From sequence record PQ850630.1: a stretch of 47,623 bases of DNA. One strand, 5' to 3'. The stretch's first letter is position 1. Each line of letters begins with the position of its first letter. Positions 2,855 through 47,577 of this stretch are shown one piece after another. The notes beneath the pieces were generated by a model. It saw nothing but the letters and a program-made list of their open reading frames with translations. It ran no database searches and was not told the origin of the DNA. Source of the stretch: Escherichia phage TanjaMuster_Bas81. The position numbers and the translations under genes are program-made.

Positions 2855-2955
2855 TTCTTTTGTTCCTTAATCTCTTGTCGATAAGATGATTCTACATCAC
2901 CACTATATCCACTTCAACATTTATTATTATTGTTGATAAACCCGCATCACCACAC

Positions 2956-2987
2956 TTGACCAATCTACACCGAGCGCATAGTATAAT
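2956..2987 (+). promoter_or_regulatory. sigma70-like promoter (-35 TTGACC, -10 TAGTAT/TATAAT) overlapping AATCTACA motif copies
   Basis: TTGACC 2956-2961, 17-nt spacer, TAGTAT 2979-2984 (TATAAT 2982-2987); upstream of gene starting 3016. Confidence 0.5.
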
Positions 2988-3015
2988 CTACATCAGGTTT
3001 ATCGGAGATATCACT

Positions 3016-3222
3016 ATGCGCAGCTATGCAGGATTCACACAGGAGGAAAAAGAGCAGGTTTATTCACTGGCACGGGCTGGTGTGCCTGATGACGTGATTT
3101 GCCGTAGGTATGACATCGACGAGGATTTTCTGCTGCGCGTTATTGATGACGTCTTCGTTAACCTGCAAGAGAAGCGCGGGTACAAGGGTATCTGCTGCAA
3201 GAATGATTTTTTGAGAGGGTGA
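3016..3222 (+). CDS. hypothetical protein
   Basis: ORF with GGAGA RBS 7 nt before ATG 3016 (track ORF extends to 2956 without RBS). Confidence 0.5.
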   Translation: MRSYAGFTQEEKEQVYSLARAGVPDDVICRRYDIDEDFLLRVIDDVFVNLQEKRGYKGICCKNDFLRG

Positions 3223-3223
3223 T

Positions 3224-3631
3224 ATGTTTAATAATAAACTAAAGAAAATAATCCGCGATGCTGCGGATAAGAAATACACCAAAAAGATTGATATATCATT
3301 CATTGACGGCACTGGCCTGTACAATCACGCCTGTCACCTGAATGCGGTAAACCGGGCTAGAGATGGGAGTTCGTGCGCAGTGGTTGAGGTTGTGGTGATT
3401 GATGATAAGTCGGTGAGCGCTCATTACATCAATATGCAGTCAGACGGCACATACATCGACTACACGCTTGGGTGGCACTGGTCAGGTGCCGATTACCGAT
3501 TTGTGCGATATGTTCCGTTTACTGAATGGAGTGATATAACAAGTTCGCTTGAGCGCCTCAAGTCAGAACTTTGTAAGCCAGTCAGCAAATGGATGCGCGC
3601 CTTTATGTTAACTAATAACGAAATGTGTTGA
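3224..3631 (+). CDS. hypothetical protein
   Basis: 135-aa track ORF, tightly packed with neighbours. Confidence 0.55.
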   Translation: MFNNKLKKIIRDAADKKYTKKIDISFIDGTGLYNHACHLNAVNRARDGSSCAVVEVVVIDDKSVSAHYINMQSDGTYIDYTLGWHWSGADYRFVRYVPFTEWSDITSSLERLKSELCKPVSKWMRAFMLTNNEMC

Positions 3632-3639
3632 GGTGATTT

Positions 3640-3807
3640 ATGATTATTGAAGGTAAAATTTTTACTGATTTGTCGGTCAGCGAGATAAAAGAAAAATTTT
3701 CAATGAACATCAACCAGGAAGGCGATGCAATTATCATCGACAAACACCAGGCCGCACAGCTCATCGAAGTCCTGCAGCGTTGGATTAATGGTGAGAAGAT
3801 TGAGTGA
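3640..3807 (+). CDS. hypothetical protein (55 aa)
   Basis: manual translation MIIEGKIFTDLSVSEIKEKF...; GAGGTGA RBS; stop overlaps next ATG (TGATG). Confidence 0.45.
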   Translation: MIIEGKIFTDLSVSEIKEKFSMNINQEGDAIIIDKHQAAQLIEVLQRWINGEKIE

Positions 3808-3995
3808 TGAGCGTTTATTTTATTCATGCTGAAGCCGTGCTGAGTAACGGCTGCGTTGCTGAGAAGATAGGAAGAATCGCAATTGCTGATAGCGCCGTGA
3901 CGGCGTTCGATGGATTCTTTTCTGATGCTACGGTTGCCAAGCTACGAGAGCAAGGTATTGAAGTTGTAATTGATAAATTCGAAAAGGTGGAGTGA
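3807..3995 (+). CDS. hypothetical protein
   Basis: track ORF; ATG at 3807 overlapping upstream stop. Confidence 0.5.
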   Translation: MSVYFIHAEAVLSNGCVAEKIGRIAIADSAVTAFDGFFSDATVAKLREQGIEVVIDKFEKVE

Positions 3996-4156
3996 TGGCA
4001 CTATTCTGGTCGTTCTGGATTCCATTTAACTTTATGTTCTGGTGGGCTATGGCCGCCGGAGTGAATGAACCAAGCATGCTACACTTCATGATCGGTTCAT
4101 TTTTCGCGGTGGTAACTGGTATTGTGCCATGTTTACTGTATCAATATTTCAAATAG
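3995..4156 (+). CDS. small hydrophobic membrane protein (53 aa, two predicted TM segments)
   Basis: manual translation MALFWSFWIPFNFMFWWAMAAG...; strong AAGGTGGAG RBS; TGATG coupling with upstream gene. Confidence 0.45.
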   Translation: MALFWSFWIPFNFMFWWAMAAGVNEPSMLHFMIGSFFAVVTGIVPCLLYQYFK

Positions 4157-4405
4157 AGGTGGGGTAATGACAAGGAAATAGGTTCACGAATATTCTATTG
4201 CAGCCAGGAAGCGCGTCGAAGGTGTATGGACGAATCATGGATTGCGCAGCAATAGAGCTAAATTGTTTGCAAAATGTCACCAAGTAGTAATTGGCGACAG
4301 GATTGAGTGTTACGCGTTTAATCAGTGGATGAAGTCTGGTGTTGTTAATAAGGGATAATTACATCAGCACCGCGAGCATCATAATCAGCATTGCCACCAT
4401 GCTAT

Positions 4406-4435
4406 AATCCCATCCAACGTGATGGGATTTTTTTA
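4406..4435 (+). terminator. intrinsic terminator/attenuator hairpin immediately upstream of portal RBS
   Basis: 9-bp perfect stem aatcccatc/gatgggatt, 6-nt loop, followed by TTTTT; ends a ~250-nt ORF-free stretch. Confidence 0.55.
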
Positions 4436-4442
4436 TTGGTGA

Positions 4443-5858
<1,416 letters not shown>

Positions 5859-5946
5859 CGCAAGACTGCCGCAACCTCGCATATCGCAGAGCCTGACCGA
5901 CCCGTTAGGCGCTGCAACCCGCCTGTCAAAGATGGATAAGGTGATA

Positions 5947-6789
5947 ATGCGCAAATACAGACAACTCAGGACTCGTGCGCTTGAGTTGTTTTGCGCCATT
6001 CCGCATAGTCAGGTTAACGCAGAATCAAGCGGCCTGTATTTCTACGATTTCAGTAGTGCACGTGCTGCCACGTTCATGGATGAATTGCGGGCGCTGATTG
6101 ACGAGATTCTGCTGGAAGGTGACGATTTCGGTCACGGCAAGATGTGGGCTAATGTGTTTATTGGTGATGCGTATCAGGCCGGAACGCAGAAGGCTAACTA
6201 TGAACTATCAAGCCTGTCTCCTGTTTACGCCGAGCAACGACCGATTGCTGCAATACTCTATAGCGAGCCTTATCTTAACCGTCTGCAACTGGCTTATACG
6301 CAGGGATACTCAGACTGGCGCGGATTGAGCGATTATTCCCGACAGCAACTGGCATCAGTCATTATGGAAGGCATTGCCCGTGGTGCTAATCCTCGCGATG
6401 TTGAAGCCGACATCGTTAAGCGTGTCGATGTGTCTCACAGCTACGCTAAGCAGCTGGCGCAGACAGAAATCACCGGTACGCTGCGTCAGGCTAACAGGCG
6501 TGAGGTCATTGAGGCGCGAGAGGAATTGGGTATTGAGACGGTGATGCTGTGGCAATCAGCATTAATGCGCACAACCCGCCAGACTCACGCAGCCAGGCAT
6601 GGACGGTTTTACACGCCAGAAGAGATTGATACGTTCTATAGCGAGAATGGCAACAGATATAATTGCCACTGCGCACAAACTCCGGCACTGGTGATGGATG
6701 GTAAGCCTGTCATTCTTGAGTCATCGCAGGAAAGGCTTAATAAGCAGCGTGAAGCATGGCAATCGGCAAACAAAAAGCCCTCTAAGTGA
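5947..6789 (+). CDS. head morphogenesis protein (Mu F / SPP1 gp7-like minor head protein)
   Basis: follows portal; start chosen at ATG 5947 after AAGGTGA; track ORF extends upstream to 5803 overlapping portal, so start is uncertain. Confidence 0.55.
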   Translation: MRKYRQLRTRALELFCAIPHSQVNAESSGLYFYDFSSARAATFMDELRALIDEILLEGDDFGHGKMWANVFIGDAYQAGTQKANYELSSLSPVYAEQRPIAAILYSEPYLNRLQLAYTQGYSDWRGLSDYSRQQLASVIMEGIARGANPRDVEADIVKRVDVSHSYAKQLAQTEITGTLRQANRREVIEAREELGIETVMLWQSALMRTTRQTHAARHGRFYTPEEIDTFYSENGNRYNCHCAQTPALVMDGKPVILESSQERLNKQREAWQSANKKPSK

Positions 6790-6805
6790 GGGCTTTGGTT
6801 TATCT
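6774..6805. terminator. bidirectional intrinsic terminator
   Basis: stem aaagccctc/gagggcttt 6774-6796 flanked by A-run and T-rich tract; at convergence of plus and minus gene blocks. Confidence 0.6.
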
Positions 6806-6872: not shown

Positions 6873-7481
6873 TTAATCATCCAGTTTCACACCGGGAATT
6901 TTTCCTGCTGCGATTGCGTCATAAATATGTTTAGCAATGTGCTTGATTTGCTCCTTATTGTTGCTAATTAACTGACTAGCTTTTCCTATCTCAGAAATAG
7001 TCTCATCACGCTTCCTTTCTGATTCTGTGCGGAGTGGGCGGAAATTATGCGTGTTTGATTGCAGAGCTACCGGTGTGTTATTGCTCCAACCAAAAACAGC
7101 TTTACCATCAACGGCTACGCACTTAAATCTACACCACTCACTTCCGTGAACCTTGTATTGGTATTCGCACTCACACCCTGCTGGCGGCAGACCTTCTCCG
7201 TTCCATGCTGGCTTTTGAGATTCGGCTAGTGCTGCTTTGTATTGCCAATAGGTCACTATCGACTCCTTGTGGTCGCAAGATAAAGGTACGGCATTAATTC
7301 CATGCCAGTAATACACAAGGCTATTCCCAGTGTGATGTTTCCATGAAAATCCATCATAGTGCGGGTCATTTGTGTCCCATACGCACAGCGAACCGTCATT
7401 ATCTTGAGTAATTGACAGTGCACCATCAGGCCACCCACCACGCTTAGGCAATTCTTGAACTAACAGGTCGATAAGTTTCAT
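6873..7481 (-). CDS. hypothetical protein (Cys/Trp-rich)
   Basis: 202-aa track ORF, last gene of minus-strand cassette. Confidence 0.55.
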   Translation of the reverse strand: MKLIDLLVQELPKRGGWPDGALSITQDNDGSLCVWDTNDPHYDGFSWKHHTGNSLVYYWHGINAVPLSCDHKESIVTYWQYKAALAESQKPAWNGEGLPPAGCECEYQYKVHGSEWCRFKCVAVDGKAVFGWSNNTPVALQSNTHNFRPLRTESERKRDETISEIGKASQLISNNKEQIKHIAKHIYDAIAAGKIPGVKLDD

Positions 7482-7702: not shown

Positions 7703-7704
7703 AA

Positions 7705-8514: not shown

Positions 8515-8581
8515 GGTTGTCATCCTCAATTAACATTGCGGAGGTGTTTCCGCTTGATGTAGATACTATGCATCATCACTC

Positions 8582-8610
8582 AATCTACGTCAACATCATT
8601 GTGATAGAAT
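8582..8610 (+). promoter_or_regulatory. extended -10 promoter (TGaTAGAAT) with AATCTACGTCA motif at -35 position, upstream of lysis genes
   Basis: TG 8602-8603, TAGAAT 8605-8610; motif 8582-8592; inverted motif copy at 8555-8565. Confidence 0.5.
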
Positions 8611-9950: not shown

Positions 9951-9951
9951 T

Positions 9952-11422: not shown

Positions 11423-11522
11423 ATTTACTACTCCTTCTCGAAAATTATTGTTGACCAATCTACATCATTTAGTCAATACTTATTGACGTAGATTGTACCA
11501 CAACGGAAAAGGTGATGTGGAA

Positions 11523-11720
11523 ATGCGATACAAAGAAATAGCAGCGAGATATCAGAAAGAGGTGCGCGAGGTTATGGAAATCCTTAACGTTCGCGAAGAT
11601 ACCATTAAGTATGTGGAAACTGCCATGTGTTCACTGGCTCTTGAAGCGGAGGTTGCAGGTCGTGAAAAGGCTGACGAACTTATATCTGCGGTGGTTTATA
11701 GTTCAACCAGTAACGGTTGA
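11523..11720 (+). CDS. hypothetical protein
   Basis: track ORF trimmed to ATG 11523 after AAAAGGTGA. Confidence 0.5.
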   Translation: MRYKEIAARYQKEVREVMEILNVREDTIKYVETAMCSLALEAEVAGREKADELISAVVYSSTSNG

Positions 11721-11780: not shown

Positions 11781-11975
11781 ATGGCGCATGACGAGCTGTA
11801 CGAAAACTCGCTAATCCAGCGACTGAATGAAGTTGAACGTACTCGCGAATGGCTTGAGTGTGACCTGCGAGAAGTGCGTAACCGCCTGCAACGCAATCGC
11901 AGCCAGCAGAAGGACGTTATCGACTGGTCGGGCGATACGCCTAAATTTAACAACATTGGAGAATGGATAAAATGA
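11781..11975 (+). CDS. hypothetical coiled-coil protein
   Basis: 64-aa track ORF, GGGAGA RBS. Confidence 0.5.
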   Translation: MAHDELYENSLIQRLNEVERTREWLECDLREVRNRLQRNRSQQKDVIDWSGDTPKFNNIGEWIK

Positions 11976-12193: not shown

Positions 12194-12441
12194 GCGCACC
12201 ACATATGCCGATGATGAATGAGGAAGGATTTTTGAACTGCCCATTCTGTGGCTGCAATGAAGTTAGCATTGCTGTCGATGAGGATGGGTGGGAGTACATA
12301 GAATGCGGAGATTGCTATTGCCGTACAGACGCATTTCGTAACAGAGAGCTAATGACTAAATCATGGAACACGAGAGAGGGACACATCTACACCGCAGACG
12401 ACTTCAATCAGGCAGCGGAGGAGCGCGATTATGGATTATAA
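12190..12441 (+). CDS. Lar-family restriction alleviation protein (zinc-ribbon)
   Basis: CPFCG...C..C motif and KSWNTRE segment match my recollection of the Lar (Rac prophage) family signature. Confidence 0.55.
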   Translation: MSAPHMPMMNEEGFLNCPFCGCNEVSIAVDEDGWEYIECGDCYCRTDAFRNRELMTKSWNTREGHIYTADDFNQAAEERDYGL

Positions 12442-12919
12442 ATCACAAATCATGCGCGTGATTATGATGCATCCCGGCGCAACGCGTGCATACATTGAGA
12501 AGCATTGCGGAGGAAAGCACTCTAGCACTACAACGCACCGTCTGCATGAGATGCTTGCGCTTGGCTTTATTCGCCGCGAGAAGTCAGTGATTCGTGGTGG
12601 CAAGTGGCAGTATAAGTATTTCATCTCTGATGATGCGGCAGGTATTGATGATGCAATTAAGTGCCATCTGATTGATAACGCTGGCGCAGAAGTGAAAGAA
12701 ATCAGCATCGCAACTGGCATTGATTACCGAATCGTGAAAAGCCGCGTCCGCATTATGTTTCATAACGGTGATGTGACGCGAAGCTATGACCACCACAAGA
12801 AACTGTGGCGTTACTCATGGAAGGAGCAGGAAGTAAATGTGAGCAACCTGTTTAATTCACTTCTTCGCAACGCAAGAGGTCGTCATGGGGAAAGCGAAAC
12901 GCAAGAAGCAAGAGTATGA
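12431..12919 (+). CDS. hypothetical protein
   Basis: 162-aa track ORF. Confidence 0.55.
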   Translation: MDYKSQIMRVIMMHPGATRAYIEKHCGGKHSSTTTHRLHEMLALGFIRREKSVIRGGKWQYKYFISDDAAGIDDAIKCHLIDNAGAEVKEISIATGIDYRIVKSRVRIMFHNGDVTRSYDHHKKLWRYSWKEQEVNVSNLFNSLLRNARGRHGESETQEARV

Positions 12920-13061: not shown

Positions 13062-13395
13062 GCACAAATCCGGCAGAACTCTGTTTGTAACATCAGATGA
13101 GTTCATTGCCAATAACCGTAAAGAGATGGGCTGGATAGTGGAGGAAGTGAAGATGACGAGTAAAGAGCAGTTTAACGAATGGTTTTATGAATATACCGGG
13201 TGCAACCCAAAGGACAGTAGATATGTGAATATGGTCGAGATGTACTGGATGGCATGGCAGGCATCTCGCGCAGCAATTGAGATTGAATTGCCAGAGCCGT
13301 GCTCCCCAGGTGATTTCTGTGTTGATATACCAGCACAAGCACATCATGAAGTTATTGAAGCAATCGAAAACGCAGGCTTAAAGGTGAAAAAATGA
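13045..13395 (+). CDS. hypothetical protein
   Basis: 116-aa track ORF. Confidence 0.55.
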   Translation: MRWAIKHKSGRTLFVTSDEFIANNRKEMGWIVEEVKMTSKEQFNEWFYEYTGCNPKDSRYVNMVEMYWMAWQASRAAIEIELPEPCSPGDFCVDIPAQAHHEVIEAIENAGLKVKK

Positions 13396-13721
13396 TTATC
13401 CAGTTAAACGACATTATGAAAGCAGACATCATTCAGCTTGAAGATTATGACATGCAATTGGCGTTTGAAATCGAAACTGTTGAGCGTCAACTGCAATATG
13501 CAGATAAGAAGAATGACCGCGTCTGGCATGAGAAAGCACTTAAGGCACGCGACCACATGAAGCGCACGCGAGCACTCATCAAAACGCGACTCGATAAGCT
13601 GTATTTTGGCGAAGAAAGGATGTTGCATGGCGCAATTCTTGCCGAGGTGCGCAAAACAATGTCAGTTGGTCGCTTCATGGAACTGGTACATAAGGCTAAA
13701 CGTAATGCGGGGTTGGTTTGA
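13392..13721 (+). CDS. hypothetical protein
   Basis: 109-aa track ORF. Confidence 0.55.
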   Translation: MIIQLNDIMKADIIQLEDYDMQLAFEIETVERQLQYADKKNDRVWHEKALKARDHMKRTRALIKTRLDKLYFGEERMLHGAILAEVRKTMSVGRFMELVHKAKRNAGLV

Positions 13722-14112: not shown

Positions 14113-14264
14113 CACCGTATATCTTTTGTTCATCATGGGCTGCTATCATTTAATCAGGAGGTAGCCCATGAACATAATCCCTATCACTTACTTTCTCACG
14201 CTCTACGCGCTCACCGACTCGCCATTGTTTGCACTGGCTACCGCCTCATGGTGCTACATCTCCC

Positions 14265-14275
14265 TGTGTTATAAT
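14265..14275 (+). promoter_or_regulatory. extended -10 promoter (TGtTATAAT) upstream of capsid genes
   Basis: tgtgttataat at 14265-14275, about 30 nt before RBS of gene 14307. Confidence 0.45.
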
Positions 14276-18617: not shown

Positions 18618-18880
18618 CAATCACCATCATCGTGAAGGCTGTTGAGTTTGCCTCCGCAGAAAGGACAAAAATTAAGCAGAACTGGATTTTTATTTCCAGC
18701 TTGATAGGTGACTTTTTCACCCAATGATTCTCCTGTGGAAATTAGCACCGATTGCACAGAAACTAATCCTTTTGTGTTTTTATTTGCTGCACGCTGAAGG
18801 TATTCAGCGAGATGTGCGCAAATATTAGTTGCGTATCTTTTCCCTTCGCTTGCGCATGGAATTAATTTTTCGGTCATCAC
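18617..18880 (-). CDS. zinc-finger protein (C-terminal CPFCG motif)
   Basis: 87-aa track ORF with Cys..Cys...CPFCGGK. Confidence 0.5.
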   Translation of the reverse strand: MMTEKLIPCASEGKRYATNICAHLAEYLQRAANKNTKGLVSVQSVLISTGESLGEKVTYQAGNKNPVLLNFCPFCGGKLNSLHDDGD

Positions 18881-19686
18881 ATCTTCTCCAGAATAGCCAT
18901 AACTTCGTGAATATCAGCAACAGGGATCTGGATAAATTCCTCATCCTCTGCCACCACATGACCAGCAGGAAGAATCACATGGTCGGCTGGCTTCAATAAC
19001 TCAATCAAACGGTCTACTGGCTTAATCTTTTTCGACTTCAGCACCTTCGCAGTGACCTTATCCTTACCTTGCGCCTTCGCTTCTTCCACTGCCTCGTCGA
19101 TAAGTTTAACCGCATCATCACCATGCTCACGCGTTACTGCTACGGCATTTGCATAGCTGATTTGCCCGGCGCTGATGCGCGCCTTTACTTCCGCCGTAAC
19201 GTCACCAAGCGATAGGTGCATTTGCACGTCAGATACTGAGCGACCTACCTTTTTTGCTATTTCTTCATTAGTCCAGCCAAAGCCTTTCAGTCGCGTGTAA
19301 GCCTTTGCGCGTTCAAACGGGTCGAGCTTCTTGCCCTGACTTGATGACACCATAAAGGCGATTTTATCCGCCTCATCCCCTGTGAAATCCTTACACTCAA
19401 TACGAACGATTGGTGCTCCGCGCTCAATGGCTCGCAGTGCGCCGAGATAGCGATGCTGACCATCAAGAATGCGGATTCCCTTCTCGTCAGGAATAACTGT
19501 TAATGCTGGTAATGGTTGGCCTGACTCCCAGCACTGCGCGAAATATTCCACATGCTGCTCATCTGCTTCGCGGATGTTGTATCCCGGCTCCAGATAGATT
19601 TGCTCCACTGGCACGAGATAGGTTTTGTTAACAGCGATGCCGTTTCGCGTCTCTTTGTCTGAATAGATTTTGCTGAGTGTTTTCAT
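18877..19686 (-). CDS. ParB-like nuclease-domain (ParB/sulfiredoxin) protein
   Basis: ILDGQHRYLGA motif characteristic of ParB N-terminal domain; 269 aa. Confidence 0.65.
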   Translation of the reverse strand: MKTLSKIYSDKETRNGIAVNKTYLVPVEQIYLEPGYNIREADEQHVEYFAQCWESGQPLPALTVIPDEKGIRILDGQHRYLGALRAIERGAPIVRIECKDFTGDEADKIAFMVSSSQGKKLDPFERAKAYTRLKGFGWTNEEIAKKVGRSVSDVQMHLSLGDVTAEVKARISAGQISYANAVAVTREHGDDAVKLIDEAVEEAKAQGKDKVTAKVLKSKKIKPVDRLIELLKPADHVILPAGHVVAEDEEFIQIPVADIHEVMAILEKM

Positions 19687-20174: not shown

Positions 20175-20216
20175 TTTTCATCACCTCTAACATTTATTGT
20201 TGTTTCTACGCCACCA

Positions 20217-20245
20217 ACTATAAACGCCGCACTAATCTACGTCAA
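20217..20245 (-). promoter_or_regulatory. sigma70-like promoter for minus-strand cassette (-35 TTGACG, 17-nt spacer, -10 TATAGT)
   Basis: rev-comp of 20240-20245 is TTGACG; rev-comp of 20217-20222 is TATAGT; 35-40 nt upstream of gene start 20174. Confidence 0.6.
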
Positions 20246-20262
20246 CAGGAATATGCTAAAAT
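20234..20262 (+). promoter_or_regulatory. extended -10 promoter (TGcTAAAAT) with AATCTACGTCA motif at -35 position; face-to-face with the minus-strand promoter
   Basis: motif 20234-20244, TG 20254-20255, TAAAAT 20257-20262. Confidence 0.5.
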
Positions 20263-37723: not shown

Positions 37724-37748
37724 TCATCATCACGTAAATGAATCTACA

Positions 37749-38183
37749 TCAATCCACATCAAAAGGCAAGCCAAAATAGAAAAGTGTGGCTTTTTTTAGT
37801 TCATCAAGTCCATAAGCGATGGCGGCATAATGACCAAGCCTACACATCTCTGTTAGCACATCCGATTGCTCCTTGCTCACTCTGCTTTTACTTTTATCGC
37901 GGCGCTTTGACTCAATCATTCCGCAACTGTGATTTACACCCGGAGTCATTATTACGTTGTCGCCTATTCCAGTCTTAACTCCCATCTTCTGGCGCTTCAG
38001 CACAAACTGCACTCTGCTTGATGTGCCAGTTTCGTTTGGTACATGAAACCACAGAACATCAGGGAATCGGTGTTGCATCCATGTGCCGTAACCCATCTGG
38101 TCAGTCTCCTCTTTAGGACACTCACCACGATAACCGCTATCAAATACCCATATACCGCTATCAAGCTGCTTCACTTTGCTCAC
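37749..38183 (-). CDS. VRR-NUC domain nuclease
   Basis: 144 aa with D...E.K-type nuclease motif arrangement resembling VRR-NUC. Confidence 0.5.
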   Translation of the reverse strand: MSKVKQLDSGIWVFDSGYRGECPKEETDQMGYGTWMQHRFPDVLWFHVPNETGTSSRVQFVLKRQKMGVKTGIGDNVIMTPGVNHSCGMIESKRRDKSKSRVSKEQSDVLTEMCRLGHYAAIAYGLDELKKATLFYFGLPFDVD

Positions 38184-40098
38184 CTGTAAAATCTTTTCTG
38201 TGGATTATGTCTCGGCCTTTATCATTAATACGATGCGTGATGCGTTTTGGCGATTTAATCAATCCAGCATACATCATGAATTGTTTTGCGTTCTGGCATT
38301 TCAGTATTTTCCCAGCCATTGACTTATCATCAAGGTGAGGAAAGATAGCCTTTGCCTTAAACATGTTTTTCATGTGAGTTGCGCCGCTATAAGGGTAGAA
38401 AACCTCGCTAGCCCATCCTTCTTTTCCGTCACAACGATTAATCCAGTAGCGATATAAAACCCCCTCTCCATCCTTCGTTAACTGAACCTTGAAATCCATA
38501 ACGTCAGCCCATTCATTATCCGTATACGCACGCTCATTCAGTGCCGCATTAGGGTCGCGCAGAACATGATCGCAATGTCGGCAATAACGCGCAGTAGGGT
38601 CATTTTTAGTCCCGCAACCATCATCAAAAATCCGTATTCCATGCTTGTCGAAACCGCAACGAATGTAGCTGAAAAATTCTTCGCATCGACCATCTGGCGA
38701 TAGTACATCTTTGCCAATGCAGCGGCGCGCATATGGGCTGTTCATTGTTCCGCATTTCGGGCACGGAACCTGTTCACCACTGCGCCTTGAACGCTGAGCC
38801 TCAGCTTCTTCCAGAATCGGGTCTTCATACAGCTGACCAAGCTCAAACATCGTGCCTGAGAAATCAAGAACCAGATGGTCTTCTTTATGATACCCAGCAT
38901 CAATTTGCTCCTTCTTCAGCAGGCGCATACCGCGACCAAGCAACTGGACAAGGAGAGTTAGCGACATTATTTTCCTGAGGATTACGCTTACATCCCATAG
39001 CGGAATGTTTACTCCGGTCGTCAGCGCGGCTATCTGGAATGTGTATTTTATTTTGCCAGTGTACGCATCCTTTAGAGCCTTACGTCTGGCTTTTTGCCCC
39101 ATATCTTCGGTGACAATAGCGTAGCTACCTTCTGGCAGATATTTAGCAGCTTCTAAACAATGCTTCTTGCCTGCGCAGGTAATTAACACTCCATTTCTAT
39201 CTTTTGTAAGCTCCATCACTTTGAGCATGATTTTCTGTGTGAGAGTACCTTGCTCAAGGATTTCTTCCTGCATCTGCTTAAGTTGTTCGGCAGTGAAGTC
39301 CTGCGTTCCGTCGATATCAGATCCACGGAATGCTGAAAGGTCGTAATGCAAATCATCAACATCATGAAGGCCAAAGATTGTTGGAACAACAAATCCGCGA
39401 TCTACCATGTACTTTGTGTCAATGTTTATTATTTCATTCTTCCAGTACGCACCTTTCATTGATTCAGTGCCACGGAATGGGCTTCCGGTGAATCCAATTG
39501 TTATCATTTCATGACCATGTTTTGCCTTGCATCTCCTGTTAAGTTCCGTAAGTATTACACCATATTGTGTTGTTGGATTCTCACTAATAATGTCCTGCCA
39601 CGGAACTTGGTGCCCTTCATCGCACAGGCAAAATCTGGGGGCAAAATCACTCAATCCACCTTTCTTAACGTCACCACTTGATTCATCTTTTTTATCAAAA
39701 AGTGCGTTAACGATTGTTCCTTCAGTTCCGCATATAATAGGGTATGCTGTACTTTTCCTGCCAAGAGATGCGCTATAAAGAGAATTTTTTACACCGCACT
39801 CCCACATCATTTCAGCATTCTGCTCTGCTATTTCCCCCTGCCTTGAAATAACAAGGCCATCCCACCCCATATCCTGAAATCTACTGCAAAGCATTGAAAT
39901 TATCACGGTCTTTCCTGATGAAACCGACGCTGTAACATAGCTTGGTTCAGGTTTCTTGCCAAAATTACGAATAACCTCAGCGCACTTTGCGTAAACAAGC
40001 CATTGGTAATCATATGGCTCTATGGAGCCTAATTTTATTGATTGCTTTAACTTCTCAATATTAATCTCTGAAATCATTTTGTCTATTTTGTTCATCAC
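38161..40098 (-). CDS. SF2 (DEAD/DEAH-box type) DNA helicase with C-terminal zinc-finger region
   Basis: Walker A-like SSGKT, DEGH motif II, helicase C-terminal motifs, multiple C-terminal Cys pairs (CPKCG, CRHCDH). Confidence 0.7.
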   Translation of the reverse strand: MMNKIDKMISEINIEKLKQSIKLGSIEPYDYQWLVYAKCAEVIRNFGKKPEPSYVTASVSSGKTVIISMLCSRFQDMGWDGLVISRQGEIAEQNAEMMWECGVKNSLYSASLGRKSTAYPIICGTEGTIVNALFDKKDESSGDVKKGGLSDFAPRFCLCDEGHQVPWQDIISENPTTQYGVILTELNRRCKAKHGHEMITIGFTGSPFRGTESMKGAYWKNEIINIDTKYMVDRGFVVPTIFGLHDVDDLHYDLSAFRGSDIDGTQDFTAEQLKQMQEEILEQGTLTQKIMLKVMELTKDRNGVLITCAGKKHCLEAAKYLPEGSYAIVTEDMGQKARRKALKDAYTGKIKYTFQIAALTTGVNIPLWDVSVILRKIMSLTLLVQLLGRGMRLLKKEQIDAGYHKEDHLVLDFSGTMFELGQLYEDPILEEAEAQRSRRSGEQVPCPKCGTMNSPYARRCIGKDVLSPDGRCEEFFSYIRCGFDKHGIRIFDDGCGTKNDPTARYCRHCDHVLRDPNAALNERAYTDNEWADVMDFKVQLTKDGEGVLYRYWINRCDGKEGWASEVFYPYSGATHMKNMFKAKAIFPHLDDKSMAGKILKCQNAKQFMMYAGLIKSPKRITHRINDKGRDIIHRKDFTGEQSEAA

Positions 40099-40670
40099 CT
40101 ACTCCTGCTAAAATCACCGTGTAATGATTTTCTATATTTCTTTATGGCGTTACCTGCTTCCTCTGCTGTATTAAAGTAACCAAGATTAAATCTCCTGCCG
40201 TTAACCGCTATCCTTGCTCTCCACTTTTTACTTTTTGCATCAAAGCCAACCCCTTTAAATCCAGATTGGTTATCAATTCTGATTTTCCTATTCATGCAGT
40301 TTTCGCTTGGTTTTGCCTCTCTTAAATTTAAGATGGCGTTATTTGATTTATCTAAGTCGATATGGTCAATCTCAAATTAAGGCCACTTCCCGTTAACATA
40401 AAACCATGCAAGTCTGTGGGCCATAAACCTGTATCCACCTATAACTATGCGTACATATCCGGTATTCTCAACATATCCAGCTCTCGGTGAGTTACTGTGA
40501 TTACCATTTCTCCACGTAAAAATTCCTGTTGATTTTTCATAATTAATTTTTGATTTAAGAAACTCATGGCTTAGCGATGACTCCTTTTGCTTTCTTCTCT
40601 CTAAATTTCTTGACTCTGCACCTGACAGAGCAGCACTTCGCCTTTGCAGTTCCGATGAACTCATTTCCAC
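40095..40670 (-). pseudogene. HNH homing endonuclease gene disrupted by in-frame TAA stop (N-terminal fragment 40377..40670, C-terminal AP2 fragment 40095..40295)
   Basis: same reading frame across TAA at 40377-40379; translation ...HRLAWFYVNGKWP*FEIDHIDLDKSNNAILNLREA...MNRKIRIDNQSGFKGV aligns with intact paralog 541..1056 ([35 protein letters not shown]). Confidence 0.6.
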
Positions 40671-40701: not shown

Positions 40702-40808
40702 TTCATAACCTCTATTGTAACGATTAATTGTTTCATTTCAAGTAACGATTGATTGTTTCATGCGAGTAAATTACAATGATTCTACATCATCGTCAACAGG
40801 AAGATTTT

Positions 40809-43729: not shown

Positions 43730-43736
43730 ACTCACC

Positions 43737-43967: not shown

Positions 43968-44132
43968 AGACACCTCCATCCGCATTCCAACAGGAACTAT
44001 AGATAAAAAATAAAATTAGCGCAACACAAAACAGGTCTAACCAGCAATAATAGCTACCACACTTAACAACTGGTCAGACCACCATCTCGTATCTGATATA
44101 TGTGGATGGTGCACGTCGTTCAATTTGTGCTC

Positions 44133-44487
44133 GATTTTTACCTAATTTACCGTATATTTATTAGTCAGTTTTTTGCATAACCAATTGATTTATATGATTT
44201 TACCTGTTTTACCGGAAATCTAATGAGTATTTTCATCATTGAGAGTAGTAGTATATTAATTGGTCTAATTTTTAAAGAACTCTAATAAAATCAATATATT
44301 AATATAAGAAAGTAACTTACTTACTTATATAGGATTTACCGGGTAAAACCGGTAACTCCTCCGCAGTCCGCGTCATTACTGGATTGATTTTTACCACCTG
44401 TAGGTAAATACAGTAGTTTTTAAGTCAGGATTGTTTTGTAAGATGTTGATTACCGGTACTTTATTTGAAAAACCGGGATTTACCGGG
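44133..44487. repeat. AT-rich region with six iteron-like repeats GAT(T)nTACC / TTTACCGG (candidate origin or operator cluster)
   Basis: copies at 44133-44142, 44196-44204, 44333-44340, 44386-44395, 44448-44454, 44477-44484; spacing roughly multiples of 10 bp. Confidence 0.5.
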
Positions 44488-44623
44488 TTTTTGTGGTGTG
44501 ATTAATAATCGCGCAATTAGCCATGTTTCACCAGAACTCACTGATGCGACACCTGAAAATCGCATTGACGTAGAATTACAACTGATGTAGATTGAACTCA
44601 TCAAAACAAACGAGGGTGAAGAG

Positions 44624-44770
44624 ATGAAAATCAAATACCGTGAAGAATTTGAAGATGCACAGGTTATGGCACGTATCGCAGTTGAGCGCACAGACAACAT
44701 CATTCCTGCCGAAGCATTCTGGAACGCAGCAATGCAGGCTTTAATCTCTGCGTATGGGTTAAGTAAATGA
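44624..44770 (+). CDS. hypothetical protein (48 aa)
   Basis: manual translation MKIKYREEFEDAQVMARIAVERTDNIIPAEAFWNAAMQALISAYGLSK; GAGGGTGA RBS; first gene of rightward operon. Confidence 0.4.
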   Translation: MKIKYREEFEDAQVMARIAVERTDNIIPAEAFWNAAMQALISAYGLSK

Positions 44771-44947
44771 CAGGCGCAAAACTCGAGCTTATCGCCAGTC
44801 TGGTTATCTTGGCATTCATCATTATCGCAGTGGCAGTTTCAAAATCAGGGTATGAGAGGTGAAATGAGCAATTGGCATAACGAACATATCATGCAGTGGT
44901 ATCGCCGTAGCATCAAGGCAATCATTAACTCTTATGAGGTTTAACAA

Positions 44948-45130
44948 ATGGCAAAGACTATCTATCGCCGCGAGAAACTGGAACCAGAACTCGGTCACGT
45001 TGGCGCGCAAAACTTTATGAGCAAGCAGGCACGTAATGCGATGGAATCTATCCGCGTGAATCGCGTTGTGCGCGTGTTTAATGGTGAAGGTAAGCGTAGG
45101 GTAATGGATGAGCTGATTATCGTATTCTGA
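44948..45130 (+). CDS. hypothetical protein
   Basis: 60-aa track ORF, GAGGT RBS. Confidence 0.45.
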   Translation: MAKTIYRREKLEPELGHVGAQNFMSKQARNAMESIRVNRVVRVFNGEGKRRVMDELIIVF

Positions 45131-45166
45131 ACTCGATTCAGCGATCTTATTTCTAATGGTGATGAT

Positions 45167-45400
45167 ATGGCAAAAGTAAAAACATACGAGTTCTGGTTTG
45201 TTCAGAACAAAATGTATGCAAGCAGGACAATCAGGCGAGTCAGCTGGTGGAATAAGTGGTTAATCATGTCTGGCTGCATTGTGCTGGCAAAGTGCAAATT
45301 CAAAGCGATTGACATCACAGATGAGGATGCGCTCAAAATCGCAAAGATTGAGTTTGAAGAAGATGGCTATTACGAAGAAATTATGGGGGTTAGGGTATGA
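45167..45400 (+). CDS. hypothetical protein
   Basis: 77-aa track ORF, GGTGA RBS. Confidence 0.5.
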   Translation: MAKVKTYEFWFVQNKMYASRTIRRVSWWNKWLIMSGCIVLAKCKFKAIDITDEDALKIAKIEFEEDGYYEEIMGVRV

Positions 45401-45894
45401 GTGAAGTTAAGCGAATTGATATCGACCACAAAGGACTTCCATTCACTGATAATAATGGGGTTTACGTTTTCTACGAAGACTATGCAGCACTAGAAGCTAA
45501 ATGCGCTGCGCTGGTGGTGGAGAATGCGGTGCTGAATAAATTTATCGTACAGAGTTGCTACGTGTTTGACGGCGAGCAGGGTGAACTATCTGATGCGTAT
45601 ATCTGCGCAATAGATGGAAGGATGCCGCAAACCACAGCCACCGACGCTTTCTTGGCTGAAGTGAAGACTGAAGCACGCAAGGAGGGAGCTTACTTTGTGG
45701 CGAACAGAATGCTGGCTGCCTGGGAAGCTGGTTTTATTGATGATACTGCAAAGAACGCCGCGGATATTGCCAGGATGATTCTTACCTCTACTGAGTTTAT
45801 GGCTAATGCGCCGGAAGGCGATTTTGACCGCTCATTCTCTGATGGCGTTCTCGAAGATATCGCCGCCCAGCTTCGCAAAGGAGGCAACCAGTGA
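45397..45894 (+). CDS. hypothetical protein
   Basis: 165-aa track ORF. Confidence 0.55.
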   Translation: MSEVKRIDIDHKGLPFTDNNGVYVFYEDYAALEAKCAALVVENAVLNKFIVQSCYVFDGEQGELSDAYICAIDGRMPQTTATDAFLAEVKTEARKEGAYFVANRMLAAWEAGFIDDTAKNAADIARMILTSTEFMANAPEGDFDRSFSDGVLEDIAAQLRKGGNQ

Positions 45895-46499
45895 GCGAGA
45901 TTAATTACCAGGCTCTGCGTGAAGCGGCGGAGAAGGCGACGAAAGGCCGGTGGGCTGTTGAGTTCGACGATGAGATTTACTCCACTGACGGCGTGAACCA
46001 TGAGCAAATAGCCATGGTATTCAGTGAAAACGAAGCGCGTGATGCTGCATTTATCGCCGCAGCCAACCCCGCCACCGTGCTGGCGCTGCTGGATGAGCTG
46101 GAGAAGACGCAGGCGCAATCGTCAAAGTGGTGCGAAGCCTTCCATAAAGCCGTATCGGTTGGTGCTCGCTATGAAGAGCGCATAGCAGAACTGGAGGGGG
46201 ACGCATTCAATCCCGCAATTATTGATGTGGTAGCAGAACGCCAGCGGCAACAGTCGGTTGAAGGATGGACTCCTGAACATGACAACGCATATCAAAATAG
46301 CGAATTAGCAGATGCAGCGGCTTGTTACGCAATTCATGCGCACAACCAAGGTTTCTCCACTCCAGCACATTGGCCGTGGTCTCCTGACTGGTGGAAGCAA
46401 TCAGGAGCACGCCGCGACTTAGTAAAAGCTGGCGCTCTTATTCTGGCAGAAATTGAACGTATTGACCGCGCCGCTGGCATTGGCGTGAAGGGGGAGTGA
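45891..46499 (+). CDS. Ead/Ea22-like protein
   Basis: N-terminal INYQALREAAEKAT.G.W and AAANPATVLALLDELE segments resemble lambdoid Ea22 family as recalled. Confidence 0.5.
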   Translation: MSEINYQALREAAEKATKGRWAVEFDDEIYSTDGVNHEQIAMVFSENEARDAAFIAAANPATVLALLDELEKTQAQSSKWCEAFHKAVSVGARYEERIAELEGDAFNPAIIDVVAERQRQQSVEGWTPEHDNAYQNSELADAAACYAIHAHNQGFSTPAHWPWSPDWWKQSGARRDLVKAGALILAEIERIDRAAGIGVKGE

Positions 46500-46500
46500 T

Positions 46501-47163
46501 ATGAGCACTATCACCAAAGAATTCACCAAAGAGCAGTTACAGCAAATTATCGAAACTGACCACGTTCAATGTGGTGAGGCTTCTGCACTGGCGCGTATCG
46601 CGCTGGCATCACTCGAAGCGGAGCCTGTAGCGTGGGCGCACAGATTAATCAACAAGCGTAACGGAGTCGTTCACCCTTGGGTTTACGGTAGCGCAGAGGC
46701 GTGTCCAAGCGAGGTGGATATCTTCAATATTGAGGTAATGCCGCTCTACACCGCCCAGCCAGCGCCGGTATCTGTGCCCGTAGCTCTGAATCGACTGCGC
46801 TCCATAGTGGCTGACCCAAGAGCTTTACCTCGGCGCAAGGAGTGGATTAGTGGGCAGCAATACAGCTATGTGCTTCTTGAAAACGTAGAGGCGATGGTAG
46901 ATGACGCCTGCCGCACCGCCATGCTTCATGGCTCAGAACCGGAAACTGATAACACAAACCAGCAATTCGAAAGCCTGGATAAAAGTGAATATCTACCCGT
47001 TCATATTAATTATCAGTGCGCTCTATGTGGCGCACGCTTTAGTGGGGATGTATTGATGACCAGACACCAACGACGCCGCTATACCACTGGCGCTAAAATC
47101 TTCCTTGCTGTTTATATGTTAGCACTGGTGGCAGCCATTGCAGGAGTTGTGCATTATGTTTAA
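46501..47163 (+). CDS. hypothetical protein with C-terminal TM segment
   Basis: 220-aa track ORF; hydrophobic IFLAVYMLALVAAIAGVV at C-terminus. Confidence 0.55.
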   Translation: MSTITKEFTKEQLQQIIETDHVQCGEASALARIALASLEAEPVAWAHRLINKRNGVVHPWVYGSAEACPSEVDIFNIEVMPLYTAQPAPVSVPVALNRLRSIVADPRALPRRKEWISGQQYSYVLLENVEAMVDDACRTAMLHGSEPETDNTNQQFESLDKSEYLPVHINYQCALCGARFSGDVLMTRHQRRRYTTGAKIFLAVYMLALVAAIAGVVHYV

Positions 47164-47335
47164 CGATATCAACGAAGCCATTCTTCATGCCATAAAGAAG
47201 CACGCAATGTATGGCAAGCGATACCATTTCGCTCTTATCCAGAGATTAAACAAAATTGAGGTGAGCACTCATCCAGAAGATGACAGACGACAGGTGATGT
47301 GGTCAACGAGGTCTATGAAGCATGCAAACAACTAA
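47156..47335 (+). CDS. hypothetical protein
   Basis: track ORF trimmed to ATG 47156 (track start 47138 is TTG). Confidence 0.4.
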   Translation: MFNDINEAILHAIKKHAMYGKRYHFALIQRLNKIEVSTHPEDDRRQVMWSTRSMKHANN

Positions 47336-47495
47336 ACAGAAAGTCTGGCAACTCGCCAAACAACACGAGCTGGATGATTTTATCGCAAAGGTGGCAAAGA
47401 CATTCCCTGACGCACTTGAAATCGTTCATGTGCAGACGCGAACAGAAAATGCATGGTGCTATGCTGGCAAGCGTGATAATGATGGTATACAATAA
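47322..47495 (+). CDS. hypothetical protein (57 aa)
   Basis: manual translation MQTTKQKVWQLAKQHELDDFIAKVAKTFPDALEIVHVQTRTENAWCYAGKRDNDGIQ; preferred over antisense track ORF 47313..47519 on composition. Confidence 0.35.
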   Translation: MQTTKQKVWQLAKQHELDDFIAKVAKTFPDALEIVHVQTRTENAWCYAGKRDNDGIQ

Positions 47496-47538
47496 GCACA
47501 TAACCACCATTGCTTTCACTCATATCATCACCCAACCT

Positions 47539-47567
47539 TTAACCCGCCTTGTGCGGGTTCTTTTTTA
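47539..47567 (+). terminator. intrinsic terminator
   Basis: aacccgc/gcgggtt stem then T6. Confidence 0.7.
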
Positions 47568-47577
47568 TCTACGTCTA

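Follow-up and report, generated by a model that had tools for sequence, protein, structure and literature searches.

The window analysed here, a 47,623-nucleotide stretch of a Skatevirus/Macdonaldcampvirus-like siphophage genome, carries a short sequence which recurs in front of many of its genes, and the question is what this sequence does there. In a preliminary description it was written as AWTCTACRYCA and taken for a phage-specific operator or promoter-associated element.

Distribution of the motif

The recurrent 11-bp motif lies far above chance. On both strands 13 exact matches to AWTCTACRYCA were found against 0.12 expected, and none of 100 shuffles reached this number (maximum 1), so the expectation of the shuffled model is clearly exceeded. 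Written on the opposite strand as TGRYGTAGAWW the same motif has 15 exact copies in the window, and 30 copies at up to one mismatch against 9.8 expected. It is the most over-represented oligomer class of the window phage; its 8-mers rank first by over-representation in the relatives L001-L003 and close to first in the window and in L004.

By our own gene map 14 of the 15 exact copies lie in non-coding DNA, which makes up 4,280 bases (9.0%) of the window. The density is 3.27 copies per kb in non-coding and 0.023 per kb in coding sequence, thus abundance in the two is not equal. The earlier statement that copies are always outside coding sequence holds for all but the one at 7126-7136, which is probably non-functional or due to chance. 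All eight divergent intergenic regions have at least one copy, and the convergent (terminator) gaps of the window have none. Copies are indeed often paired or inverted, with direct pairs at 17, 23 and 31 bp and with inverted pairs spaced by 27 bp at 8555/8582 and at 11457/11484.

The positions first given for the copies at 2889, 2985, 8582, 11457, 20234, 23840, 25897, 37741, 8555, 11484, 44566 and 44583 were right, and the one listed as 40778-40788 is to be moved to 40779-40789. The copy at 2962 is present, as an 11-mer (2962-2972) ending in G with one mismatch. The one at 47566-47576 (TATCTACGTCT) is degenerate, as had been said, with two mismatches, and among relatives L002 lacks it and seszw_290L has it in mutated form. 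Two copies, 20203-20213 (TTTCTACGCCA) and 7126-7136, had been missed.

Strand and promoter geometry

The strand on which the motif is read was examined in five genomes. In the orientation first proposed a gene start lies within 150 nt of 41 of the 66 copies (median 57 nt), whereas in the reverse complement a ribosome-binding site and start codon follow within 150 nt for 58 of the 66 (median 34.5 nt), the distances forming a tight cluster of 24-35 nt. The reverse complement fits better, and the original strand and register are given up. At 37741 the copy is flanked by two minus-strand genes within a block of such genes, and only a minus-strand reading of it is sensible. It had been observed correctly that the G-containing variant carries TTGACG on the opposite strand, and this turns out to be the key to the element.

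Read as TGRYG-TAGAWT, the element is very probably the core of the family's own host-polymerase promoters for non-structural genes. Where TAGAWT is placed as the -10, TTGACA, TTGACG or TTGAAG lies exactly 17 bp upstream in several copies. A -35 with at least four of six matches at 16-18 bp was found for 6 of the 15 window copies (background 12.6%), and one with at least five of six for 3 copies (background 1.6%). Three further window copies act as TTGACG for a downstream -10: in the CG variant the preceding T and TGACG make up a -35 hexamer, and its partner (TATAGT, CATAGT or a second motif copy) lies 17 bp downstream. Among the five best sigma-70-like matches within 20-38 kb, three are motif sites. 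The copies at 8555, 11457, 11484, 20203 and 40779 (about one third) lack both a good -35 at 16-18 bp and a -10 partner further downstream, and their role is assigned from position. The copies are given below with the strand of the TGRYGTAGAWW reading; +1 positions are predicted.

2889-2899, minus: TGATGTAGAAT; TAGAAT is the -10, with TTGAAG (2917-2912) 17 bp upstream; target is the minus-strand ORF 2844-2497, start codon 34 nt downstream
2962-2972, minus: degenerate CGGTGTAGATT; first 11 spacer nucleotides of the rightward promoter TTGACC(2956-2961)-17-TAGTAT(2979-2984), whose first downstream gene is a 68-aa ORF (3016-3222)
2985-2995, minus: TGATGTAGATT; antisense, at about -6 to +5 of the rightward promoter 2956-2984
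7126-7136, minus: exact copy inside ORF 6873-7481, not conserved in Bas77
8555-8565, plus: TGATGTAGATA; lies where a minus-strand unit (from about 8514) and the lysis genes (from 8637) diverge; coincides, on the opposite strand, with +1 of the leftward TTGACG-17-CATAGT
8582-8592, minus: TGACGTAGATT; with base 8593 forms the -35 of the leftward TTGACG(8593-8588)-17-CATAGT(8570-8565); 12 nt from the hexamer TAGAAT of the rightward lysis promoter
11457-11467, minus: TGATGTAGATT; start codon of ORF 11422-11228 34 nt downstream; also part of the spacer in a conserved rightward promoter, TTGACC(11451)-18-AATACT(11480)
11484-11494, plus: TGACGTAGATT; start codon of ORF 11523-11720 28 nt downstream; near +1 of TTGACC-18-AATACT; the other strand overlaps a conserved extended -10 TGGTACAAT (11500-11492)
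20203-20213, minus: TGGCGTAGAAA; a poor -10 because of its last base A; at about +1 to +11 of the promoter 20245-20217; kept in all relatives, 28 nt ahead of the start of ORF 20174-19698
20234-20244, minus: TGACGTAGATT; -35 of TTGACG(20245-20240)-17-TATAGT(20222-20217)
23840-23850, minus: TGGTGTAGATT; -10 of TTGACA(23868-23863)-17-TAGATT, driving a minus-strand unit in which a non-coding stretch precedes tRNA-Ser and tRNA-Arg
25897-25907, minus: TGATGTAGATT; -10 of TTGACA(25925-25920)-17-TAGATT; ORF 25861-25568 starts 35 nt downstream
37741-37761, minus: tandem overlapping TGATGTGGATT and TGATGTAGATT; TTGCCT (37769-37764) 17 bp upstream; internal promoter 29 nt ahead of the exonuclease gene 37711-36773
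40779-40789, minus: TGATGTAGAAT; antisense, covering about +2 to +12 downstream of the primase promoter, TTGATT(40749)-17-TACAAT(40777); a separate leftward promoter, TTGAAA(40741)-16-TACAAT(40714), is there as well
44566-44576, plus: TGACGTAGAAT; with base 44565 forms TTGACG, the -35 for the 44583 copy
44583-44593, plus: TGATGTAGATT; -10, 17 bp after TTGACG; ORF 44624-44770 starts 30 nt downstream
47566-47576, minus: degenerate AGACGTAGATA; flanked by a terminator and by the extended -10 TGTTAAAAT (47580-47588)

The unit of the 44583 promoter is the first rightward one past the large AT-rich non-coding region. The motif had also been described as following a -10-like hexamer. This is so at the promoter 2956-2984, at the primase promoter and at 11500-11492, and is not general; it is an overlap of +1 in opposite orientation, which is operator-like behaviour.

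Conservation across the family

Motif copies were found in the relatives Bas77 (9), Roufvirus pYD38-A (11) and SB28 (15), and they are kept at orthologous sites in Klebsiella/Roufvirus relatives where the flanks diverge. T1-like SECphi27 has no motif copy and has its own, different repeat instead. The conserved islands are the -35, the motif and the extended -10 (the last at the loci near 25897, 20234, 8582 and 23840), and the Salmonella/E. coli and the Klebsiella clades differ in spacers and leaders. At the 20234 site TTGACGTAGATT is kept throughout about 45 family contigs, TAGATT included, and the next 11 spacer bases vary freely. At the 23850-type promoter the downstream cargo is unlike among the family contigs and the break falls directly after TAGATT. 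The plus-strand tail operon of Vi II-E1 and of SB28 contains a minus-strand homing-endonuclease gene that comes with its own motif copy or copies. The element is thus family-specific and promoter-associated, as the preliminary description had it; the protein which it supposed to bind there is a putative one.

A second promoter class

The window also has nine promoters of the extended -10 type (TGnTAnnAT) that lack a -35, all of them on the plus strand, in non-coding DNA and before structural or lysis operons. The words early and late are used here for gene content only.

4400-4408, plus: extended -10 TGCTATAAT, upstream of the portal gene
8602-8610, 14141-14149, 14267-14275, 20254-20262, 23875-23883, 25937-25945, 32967-32975 and 47580-47588, plus: the other eight extended -10 promoters

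Several of these stand back to back with motif promoters. Their hexamers vary (TATAAT, TAGAAT, TAAAAT, TATCAT, TACAAT), and the motif hexamer is always TAGAWW. The TG of the motif is at -17/-16, compared with -15/-14 in an extended -10.

A possible regulator of the motif

Besides its promoter role the 11-mer may be the docking site, or operator, of one dedicated putative regulator, a finely balanced reading towards which we lean only slightly. The 11-mer does not change with its place in a promoter (-10, -35, spacer or +1) or with its direction relative to the promoter that it overlaps, and sigma-70 has no need of TGRYG or of the G at -10; from these together an operator is inferred. The G at -10, the A at -9 and TGRYG show no variation in the 15 copies or across clades, and a search for TGRYG beside other -10 hexamers found none. 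The TGRYGTAGAAA copy is a poor -10 without T at -7, yet it is conserved, and it sits at +1. Antisense copies lie in the spacer or at +1 of the 2956-2984, the primase and the 11451-11480 promoters. Against an operator counts the asymmetry of the motif, as most dimeric repressors have palindromic operators.

Two candidate genes for this regulator were noted.

12431-12919, plus: winged-helix (MarR-like) protein, 162 aa; PHROG 1687, 7e-57
3016-3222, plus: family-specific 68-aa protein, a weak candidate, directly after the promoter with two motif copies

The MarR-like protein has a Pfam MarR_2 match below the cut-off (E=0.011). Its gene is in every natural family genome checked and is deleted in the reduced mutant seszw_290L; the protein is dispensable, since this mutant is viable. 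The model of the 68-aa protein is a three-helix HTH-like bundle (pLDDT 82) whose helix 3 is acidic, and its best Foldseek matches are HTH domains, none of them significant. No convincing binder of the motif was found among the ORFs scanned.

The window phage also encodes a ParB/KorB-like protein (Pfam HTH_ParB and KorB domains). It is naturally absent from SB28, where all 15 motif copies are kept, and its more plausible targets are the TTTACC(G)GGTAAA-type repeats at 44130-44490.

Alternative explanations

A promoter core overlapped by the operator of a phage regulator is the joint reading which we consider fairly probable. The motif might instead be a promoter consensus only, made of a shared -10 and its upstream context, with the other registers being tandem or overlapping promoters and with no dedicated binder. 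TGRYG would then help open-complex formation through flexible pyrimidine-purine steps at -17/-16, -14/-13 and -12/-11, or reflect descent from a common promoter cassette. The orientation and start-codon distances, the canonical -35 at 17 bp and the variable cargo starting directly after TAGATT all suit this reading, as do the lack of a convincing binder among the scanned ORFs and the persistence of the motif in SB28, which has no ParB-like protein, and in the viable mutant that lacks the MarR-like one; tandem or overlapping promoters alone could yield the whole pattern if selection favours one highly active -10 context. However, the nine late promoters show that sigma-70 accepts many different -10 hexamers, and the motif keeps its G at -10, its A at -9 and TGRYG, the last with no other hexamers and with TG off the extended -10 position (-15/-14). 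TAGATT is moreover conserved in the spacer of TTGACG-17-TATAGT where no -10 is needed, and TAGAAA copies without T at -7 are conserved as well. We therefore consider a consensus without a binder rather unlikely.

The orientation first proposed would make AWTCTACRYCA an upstream, -35-replacing activator box, like a MotA box, which switches on the extended -10 late promoters. The geometry exists at 8582 and 20234, whose copies and orthologues end 11-13 nt before an extended -10 hexamer without -35, and the copies at 23840 and 25897 lie 27 and 32 nt upstream of TGATATAAT; nowhere else does the motif occupy the -35 position before an extended -10. Within 40 bp of four of the nine promoters of this class (4400, 14141, 14267, 32967) there is no exact copy, the promoter at 32967 being followed only by a one-mismatch copy. 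For the other five the gap from motif to -10 is 6-32 nt and unequal between orthologues (22 against 32 nt, 23 against 27 nt), therefore the motif is no activator box of fixed position. In that direction many copies face no gene, the one at 37741 would point antisense, and no MotA or AsiA family match was found among the ORFs scanned, which leaves an activator box very improbable. Short homologies for cassette exchange among related phages, that is module-boundary repeats with no transcription role, would agree with the unlike cargo behind the same promoter, with a break that falls at the motif's 3' end and with the mobile homing-endonuclease genes that carry a copy. But homologous exchange needs more than 11 bases, the block conserved at these junctions takes in the -35 and the adjoining late promoter further upstream so that the boundary is the promoter end, and copies are also at stable, non-mosaic loci; we regard this explanation as scarcely credible.

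Proposed mechanism and comparison with known systems

Under the joint reading of promoter core and operator, host sigma-70 RNA polymerase would use the motif promoters in Skatevirus, Macdonaldcampvirus and Roufvirus for units of small early, replication, recombination, exclusion or moron, tRNA and homing-endonuclease genes. In most copies TAGAWT would be the -10, with a predicted start about 7 nt downstream and 5' leaders of about 18-28 nt; a CG-variant copy would serve as -35 for a -10 hexamer 17 bp downstream. The structural and lysis operons would be transcribed from the extended -10 promoters without -35. The regulator would most likely be phage-encoded and most likely a repressor turning the motif promoters down together, and this repression may free the overlapping extended -10 promoters. 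The operator role and the early/late switching of the preliminary description are both compatible with this architecture and are kept here as proposals; no start-site, RNA-seq or binding study was found in the literature for any family member. The motif set gives a useful map of the phage transcription programme and is not a new kind of element.

Phage T4 has a consensus class of early promoters, and middle promoters with a MotA box and AsiA. T4 and the window phage are alike in using the host polymerase and in marking a temporal or functional gene class by a conserved sequence beyond the sigma-70 hexamers. The MotA box, (a/t)(a/t)(a/t)TGCTTtA, is fixed at -30 and replaces the -35, whereas the window motif has another sequence and no constant register, being centred on the -10 (-17 to -7) or placed on the -35. 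In phi29 the p4 protein switches between the divergent early A2b/A2c and late A3 promoters. Early promoters with -35 and -10 and late ones lacking a -35 stand likewise back to back within about 60 bp at 8555-8610, 20203-20262, 23840-23883 and 25897-25945, a layout in which one bound protein could silence one promoter and release or activate the other. However, p4 binds inverted repeats upstream and acts with p6, and the window site is asymmetric and on the promoter core; we know of no p4-like protein in the family. Thermus phage P23-45 (gp39/gp76) and related anti-sigma-region-4 strategies switch from -35/-10 to extended -10 promoters, and its two classes per genome, -35-dependent early and TGn-extended -10 without -35 later, resemble those found here. 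That switch needs no operator in the early promoters and leaves the conserved 11-mer unexplained, and a gp39 homologue was not identified.

KorA and KorB of the IncP plasmid RK2 act at global operators, palindromes bound by dimers. One short operator is there repeated at many promoters of a mobile genome, over the -10 (KorA) or the -35 (KorB), as may be the case here, but the window motif is asymmetric. The promoter-early stem-loop (PeSL) repeats of T4-type phages are similar in that variable cargo is bordered by recurring early-promoter sequences, which fall on mosaic junctions; the window repeat differs in having no stem-loop and in being only 11 bp plus the -35.

Distribution of the motif

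Genome-wide counting was done of the 11-bp motif AWTCTACRYCA, which reads TGRYGTAGAWW on the other strand. The window has 13 exact matches to AWTCTACRYCA against 0.12 expected from dinucleotide-preserving shuffles; for TGRYGTAGAWW there are 15 exact copies, and 30 with at most one mismatch against 9.8 expected. Chance origin of the motif is excluded, and the feature is real and strongly non-random. On the curated gene map, 14 of the 15 exact copies lie in non-coding DNA, which is 9.0% of the window, so that the density is 3.27 per kb in non-coding DNA and 0.023 per kb in coding DNA. The preliminary description had placed the motif always outside coding sequence; this holds for all exact copies except the one at 7126, which is coding, and the motif is more frequent than in shuffled sequence and far from equally abundant in coding DNA. 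Its coordinates were mostly exact, with 40778 to be read as 40779 and the copies at 2962 and 47566 being degenerate, and its copy list had omitted 20203 as well as 7126.

None of the eight divergent intergenic regions is without a copy, and none of the convergent gaps of the window has one. The copies are arranged singly, in direct pairs (17, 23 and 31 bp) or in inverted pairs (27 bp), and none of these arrangements is constant. In an unbiased scan of 8-mers, sub-words of the motif were the most over-represented words of three relatives, and for the window and phage Vi II-E1 they ranked close to the top. Phages Bas77, pYD38-A and SB28 have 9, 11 and 15 copies respectively, and the T1-like phage SECphi27 has none. 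A scan of IMG/VR for TTGACA-N12-motif returned mostly members of the family, along with scattered single matches in unrelated contigs, and no second family with such a regulon.

The window itself is an essentially complete genome, about 47.6 kb, of a virulent siphophage in the Skatevirus/Macdonaldcampvirus group. It is about 91% identical in nucleotides to E. coli phage Bas77 and to the Salmonella phages KFS-SE2, Skate and 64795_sal3. Between its helicase and the one from Vi II-E1 the identity is 96.9%, and the annotated relatives have the same gene order; the layout is also found in the remoter Klebsiella phage ZX4, Flyfo siphovirus Tbat1_6 and Roufvirus pYD38-A. The searchable literature holds no description of the motif (by exact sequence, Skatevirus, Roufvirus or TAGATT), no transcription start-site data for this family and nothing on the transcription organisation of Skatevirus, Macdonaldcampvirus and Roufvirus phages, and the GenBank record of Vi II-E1 annotates other repeats and not the motif.

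Strand and promoter geometry

The reverse complement, TGRYG-TAGAWT, holds a -10-like hexamer, TAGATT or TAGAAT, and the CG variant with a preceding T gives the -35-like hexamer TTGACG. Over five genomes, a ribosome-binding site and start codon follow within 150 nt for 58 of 66 copies in this direction, and the distances have a median of 34.5 nt and cluster tightly at 24-35 nt; in the direction chosen by the preliminary description the same is true of 41 of 66 copies, with a median of 57 nt. The strand given there was therefore wrong, while its general idea of a promoter-associated element was partly right. At 37741 the copy is flanked by two minus-strand genes and stands 29 nt ahead of the exonuclease gene, and the copy at 23840-23850 is followed by a non-coding stretch and then two tRNAs, all on the minus strand. 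Vi II-E1 and SB28 have a homing-endonuclease gene on the minus strand, inserted amid their plus-strand tail genes, and this gene too has one or more copies immediately upstream.

An independent consensus scan for sigma-70-like -35/-10 pairs gave the following hits at the motif:

25925-25897, minus strand, TTGACA-17-TAGATT
23868-23840, minus strand, TTGACA-17-TAGATT
20245-20217, minus strand, TTGACG-17-TATAGT
44565-44593, plus strand, TTGACG-17-TAGATT
2917-2889, minus strand, TTGAAG-17-TAGAAT
8593-8565, minus strand, TTGACG-17-CATAGT

The first three of these are among the best five hits of the scan between 20 and 38 kb. The hexamer ends as TAGATT or TAGAAT, and hence has the TAnnnT form of a sigma-70 -10, in 13 of the 15 exact copies; the other two end as TAGATA and TAGAAA, both without T at -7. 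A -35 with at least four of six matches stands 16-18 bp upstream of TAGAWT at 6 of 15 copies (background 12.6%), and one with at least five of six at 3 of 15 (background 1.6%). At three other copies the motif itself supplies the -35, with the -10 hexamer 17 bp further down, and six of the 15 have neither their own -35 nor a downstream -10 partner. The copies are upstream of transcription units and co-oriented with them, with short leaders. The TG of the motif stands at -17/-16 and its Y-G at -14/-13, so the TG at -15/-14 of an extended -10 promoter is not found. None of the records of the relatives annotates a phage RNA polymerase or sigma factor, nor was one found among the ORFs scanned; transcription should therefore depend on the host polymerase.

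Downstream of the promoter at 23868-23840, the minus strand has about 860 nt (22979-23839) without a convincing ORF, situated upstream of tRNA-Ser and tRNA-Arg. Parts of it (23412-23831 and 23663-23831) match many unrelated phages at 79-93%, including Vi01-like myoviruses, Kuravirus-like phages, FSL SP-076 and HK633, with nothing annotated there. Rfam gave only sub-threshold tmRNA-like matches in this stretch, and the fold of its first 196 nt has no unusual structure (z = 0.2). This stretch may represent a non-coding RNA that is widespread among phages, or else the remnant of a tRNA cluster.

Extended -10 promoters

A search for TGnTAnnAT with at least five of six matches to TATAAT gave nine non-coding sites, all on the plus strand and all without a -35:

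4400, 8602, 14141, 14267, 20254, 23875, 25937, 32967 and 47580, plus strand, extended -10 sites

They precede the portal, lysis, capsid, head-tail, major tail, tape-measure, tail-fibre and terminase operons and form a class apart from the motif, without its hexamer. At four divergent regions they stand back to back with motif promoters, their -10 hexamers being 17-37 bp from the motif. By the units that lie behind them, the motif class serves non-structural units and the extended -10 class serves structural and lysis units; we infer the labels "early" and "late" for the two classes from this gene content.

One-mismatch motif copies on the minus strand, TGATGTTGATT (25943-25953) and TGATGTATATT (32973-32983), directly follow the hexamers of the late extended -10 sites 25937-25945 and 32967-32975; read in the opposite orientation they give TATAAT-CAACATCA and TACAAT-ATACATCA. 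They may be weak operators at +1 of the late promoters, or chance occurrences.

Conservation of the motif sites

When seven orthologous regions were aligned, the -35 hexamer, the 11-mer and the adjoining extended -10 stood out as conserved islands, whereas spacer and leader sequences are not the same in the Klebsiella clade as in the Salmonella/E. coli clade. Among IMG/VR contigs of the family, at least eight unrelated cargo sequences lie behind the promoter upstream of the major tail gene region, and homology among these contigs stops directly after TAGATT. Such a break is as would be expected if transcription starts just beyond, and a role of the motif as a recombination boundary would be at most a by-product.

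Promoter consensus or operator

A pure promoter consensus is a serious rival reading, to which we assign a rather low probability. Several features exceed the requirements of sigma-70. Five different hexamers occur among the nine late promoters; the motif hexamer, by contrast, never departs from TAGAWW, and its G at -10 and A at -9 do not vary. TGRYG occupies -17 to -13, outside the extended -10 position, and is conserved across clades; in this genome it was not found as a general prefix of -10 hexamers, being tied to TAGA only. About 45 family contigs preserve TAGATT in the copy that provides the -35; the 11 spacer bases behind it are free to vary, and TATAGT, the actual -10 there, is invariant. 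Another conserved copy, TGRYGTAGAAA, has no T at -7 and lies at about +1 of that promoter; copies in the spacer by the -35 and at +1, partly antisense, occur at the 2956-2984, primase (especially in Bas77) and conserved 11451-11480 promoters. The same site is thus found on the -10, -35, spacer and +1, as in the operators of a global regulator, and because it stays intact while sliding over these parts of different promoters, a regulator which reads the 11-mer is favoured. That such a putative regulator binds it we consider about as probable as its opposite, or slightly more so. The most economical role of such a regulator would be coordinated repression of the motif promoter class, and at back-to-back loci repression would also clear the overlapping extended -10 promoters.

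The preliminary description had put the motif at the -35 position of some extended -10 promoters, from where it could be read as an activator box. The loci at 8582 and 20234 fit this, but they are the only two: elsewhere the distance from motif to extended -10 is 6, 27 or 32 nt, so that the motif does not keep to 11-13 bp from the -10, in place of a -35, throughout the class as a MotA box does. Moreover, four of the nine late promoters have no exact copy, and at 32967 there is then a one-mismatch copy only. A more specific scheme, which we regard as rather improbable, has one asymmetric 11-bp operator in every early-class -10 or -35, read by one small phage protein for an early-to-late switch. 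The binder would be, for example, the winged-helix protein at 12431-12919 or the 68-aa protein at 3016-3222; its binding would shut the early class and simultaneously hand the polymerase to the late class, since the early promoters adjoin, back to back, the extended -10 promoters that lack a -35.

Promoter-class signatures and global operators are known from the early and middle promoters of T4, the p4 switch of phi29, the KorA/KorB operators of RK2 and the switch of P23-45 to extended -10 promoters, and the motif can be likened to each of them. It is a member of none of these families; of the defining features looked for, a fixed -30 box, dyad symmetry and TG at -15/-14 are not found. In particular, TGRYGTAGAWT has no internal dyad of the kind in palindromic operators of CI/Cro, KorA/KorB or MarR type.

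Replication iterons and a partition site were rejected, as the copies are dispersed over the genome with one or two per intergenic region. A known RNA family or RNA-level element was likewise rejected, since Rfam finds nothing at the copies; under the promoter reading most copies would go untranscribed. Host-factor boxes were compared as well, and the invariant GTAGA core agrees with none of the consensus sequences for DnaA, IHF, CRP, Fur, NarL and MetJ. There is a resemblance to DnaA boxes in some degenerate neighbours (GTGGAT), but the motif itself has A where DnaA needs G.

Candidate binding proteins

The proteins considered as binders were:

12431-12919, winged-helix MarR-like protein (PHROG 1687, 7e-57; Pfam MarR_2 only at E=0.011)
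3016-3222, 68-aa protein directly behind a promoter carrying two motif copies
18877-19686, minus strand, ParB/KorB-like protein (Pfam HTH_ParB 1e-10, KorB 6.6e-5)
11422-11228, 11781-11975, 13392-13721 and 44948-45130, further small conserved proteins, like the 68-aa protein without family assignment

The MarR-like protein and the five small unassigned proteins are kept in every natural family genome examined. The MarR-like gene is confined to the family (155 phage-database records) and is deleted in the viable genome-reduced mutant seszw_290L; the model of its protein has low confidence (pLDDT 51), with only an N-terminal winged-helix topology visible. The 68-aa protein is modelled confidently (pLDDT 82) as a three-helix HTH-like bundle whose third, putative recognition helix is acidic. 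Its Foldseek matches to HTH domains (NarL, GerE, ArdK, transposase) all have E above 0.2 and none is significant, and on this model it would be a weak candidate only. A homologue is annotated in longer form, 113 aa, in Vi II-E1 (L004, 2203-2544) and in record L127 (31400-31741), the extra 45-residue N-terminus running through the promoter and its two motif copies; alignment of homologues supports the short 68-aa form.

All the seszw mutants listed, down to one of 36.0 kb, retain the ParB/KorB-like gene despite deletion of its neighbours, which together with the Pfam matches made its product an attractive binder. The natural isolate SB28, however, lacks nearly all of the gene and retains its 15 motif copies in the usual places, and the ParB/KorB-like protein is therefore an unlikely binder.

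An AT-rich non-coding region of about 600 bp (43968-44560) carries about ten TTTACC/TTACCG units. Repeats of TTTACC type are confined to it and cluster at 44130-44490, with a perfect palindrome TTTACCGGGTAAA at 44335-44347 and also TTTACC-N7-GGTAAA; related GGGGTAAA-TTTTACCCC sequences are at the same place in the Klebsiella clade. The form of the repeats recalls ParB/KorB operators, the phage encoding the ParB/KorB-like protein, and the region is probably a replication origin or a parS-like site.

Value of the data

Many Skatevirus, Macdonaldcampvirus and Roufvirus phages are under development against Salmonella, E. coli and Klebsiella. Once read on the right strand, the motif yields a near-complete promoter map, with about a dozen motif promoters and nine extended -10 promoters, which will be useful for annotation because several database ORFs overlap these promoters. 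The map can also aid phage engineering, by indicating where cargo fits under which promoter class, and help in interpreting genome-reduction mutants, and it gives a testable hypothesis of a temporal switch along with a short list of candidate regulators. If the single-protein switch were true, it would represent genome-wide early-to-late control in a virulent enterobacterial siphophage family.

Additional observations

At 458-521 on the plus strand there is an Rfam match to the int-alpA sRNA family, which scores 42.6 bits where the gathering score is 35.8; it falls in the gap separating the small-terminase-like ORF 1-441 from the HNH endonuclease ORF 541-1056 (plus strand). The minus-strand ORFs 40377-40664 and 40095-40295, between the helicase and primase genes, correspond to different parts of the same HNH-endonuclease PHROG, phrog_99, and they look like a split or decayed homing endonuclease. 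Phage SECphi27 (L005) has its own 20-bp intergenic repeat, TTTTAACAAAAAGTGCTATT, in 14 copies (for example at 7081, 9842 and 12505), often after terminator-like hairpins, and lineage-specific intergenic signatures may be general in these siphophages.
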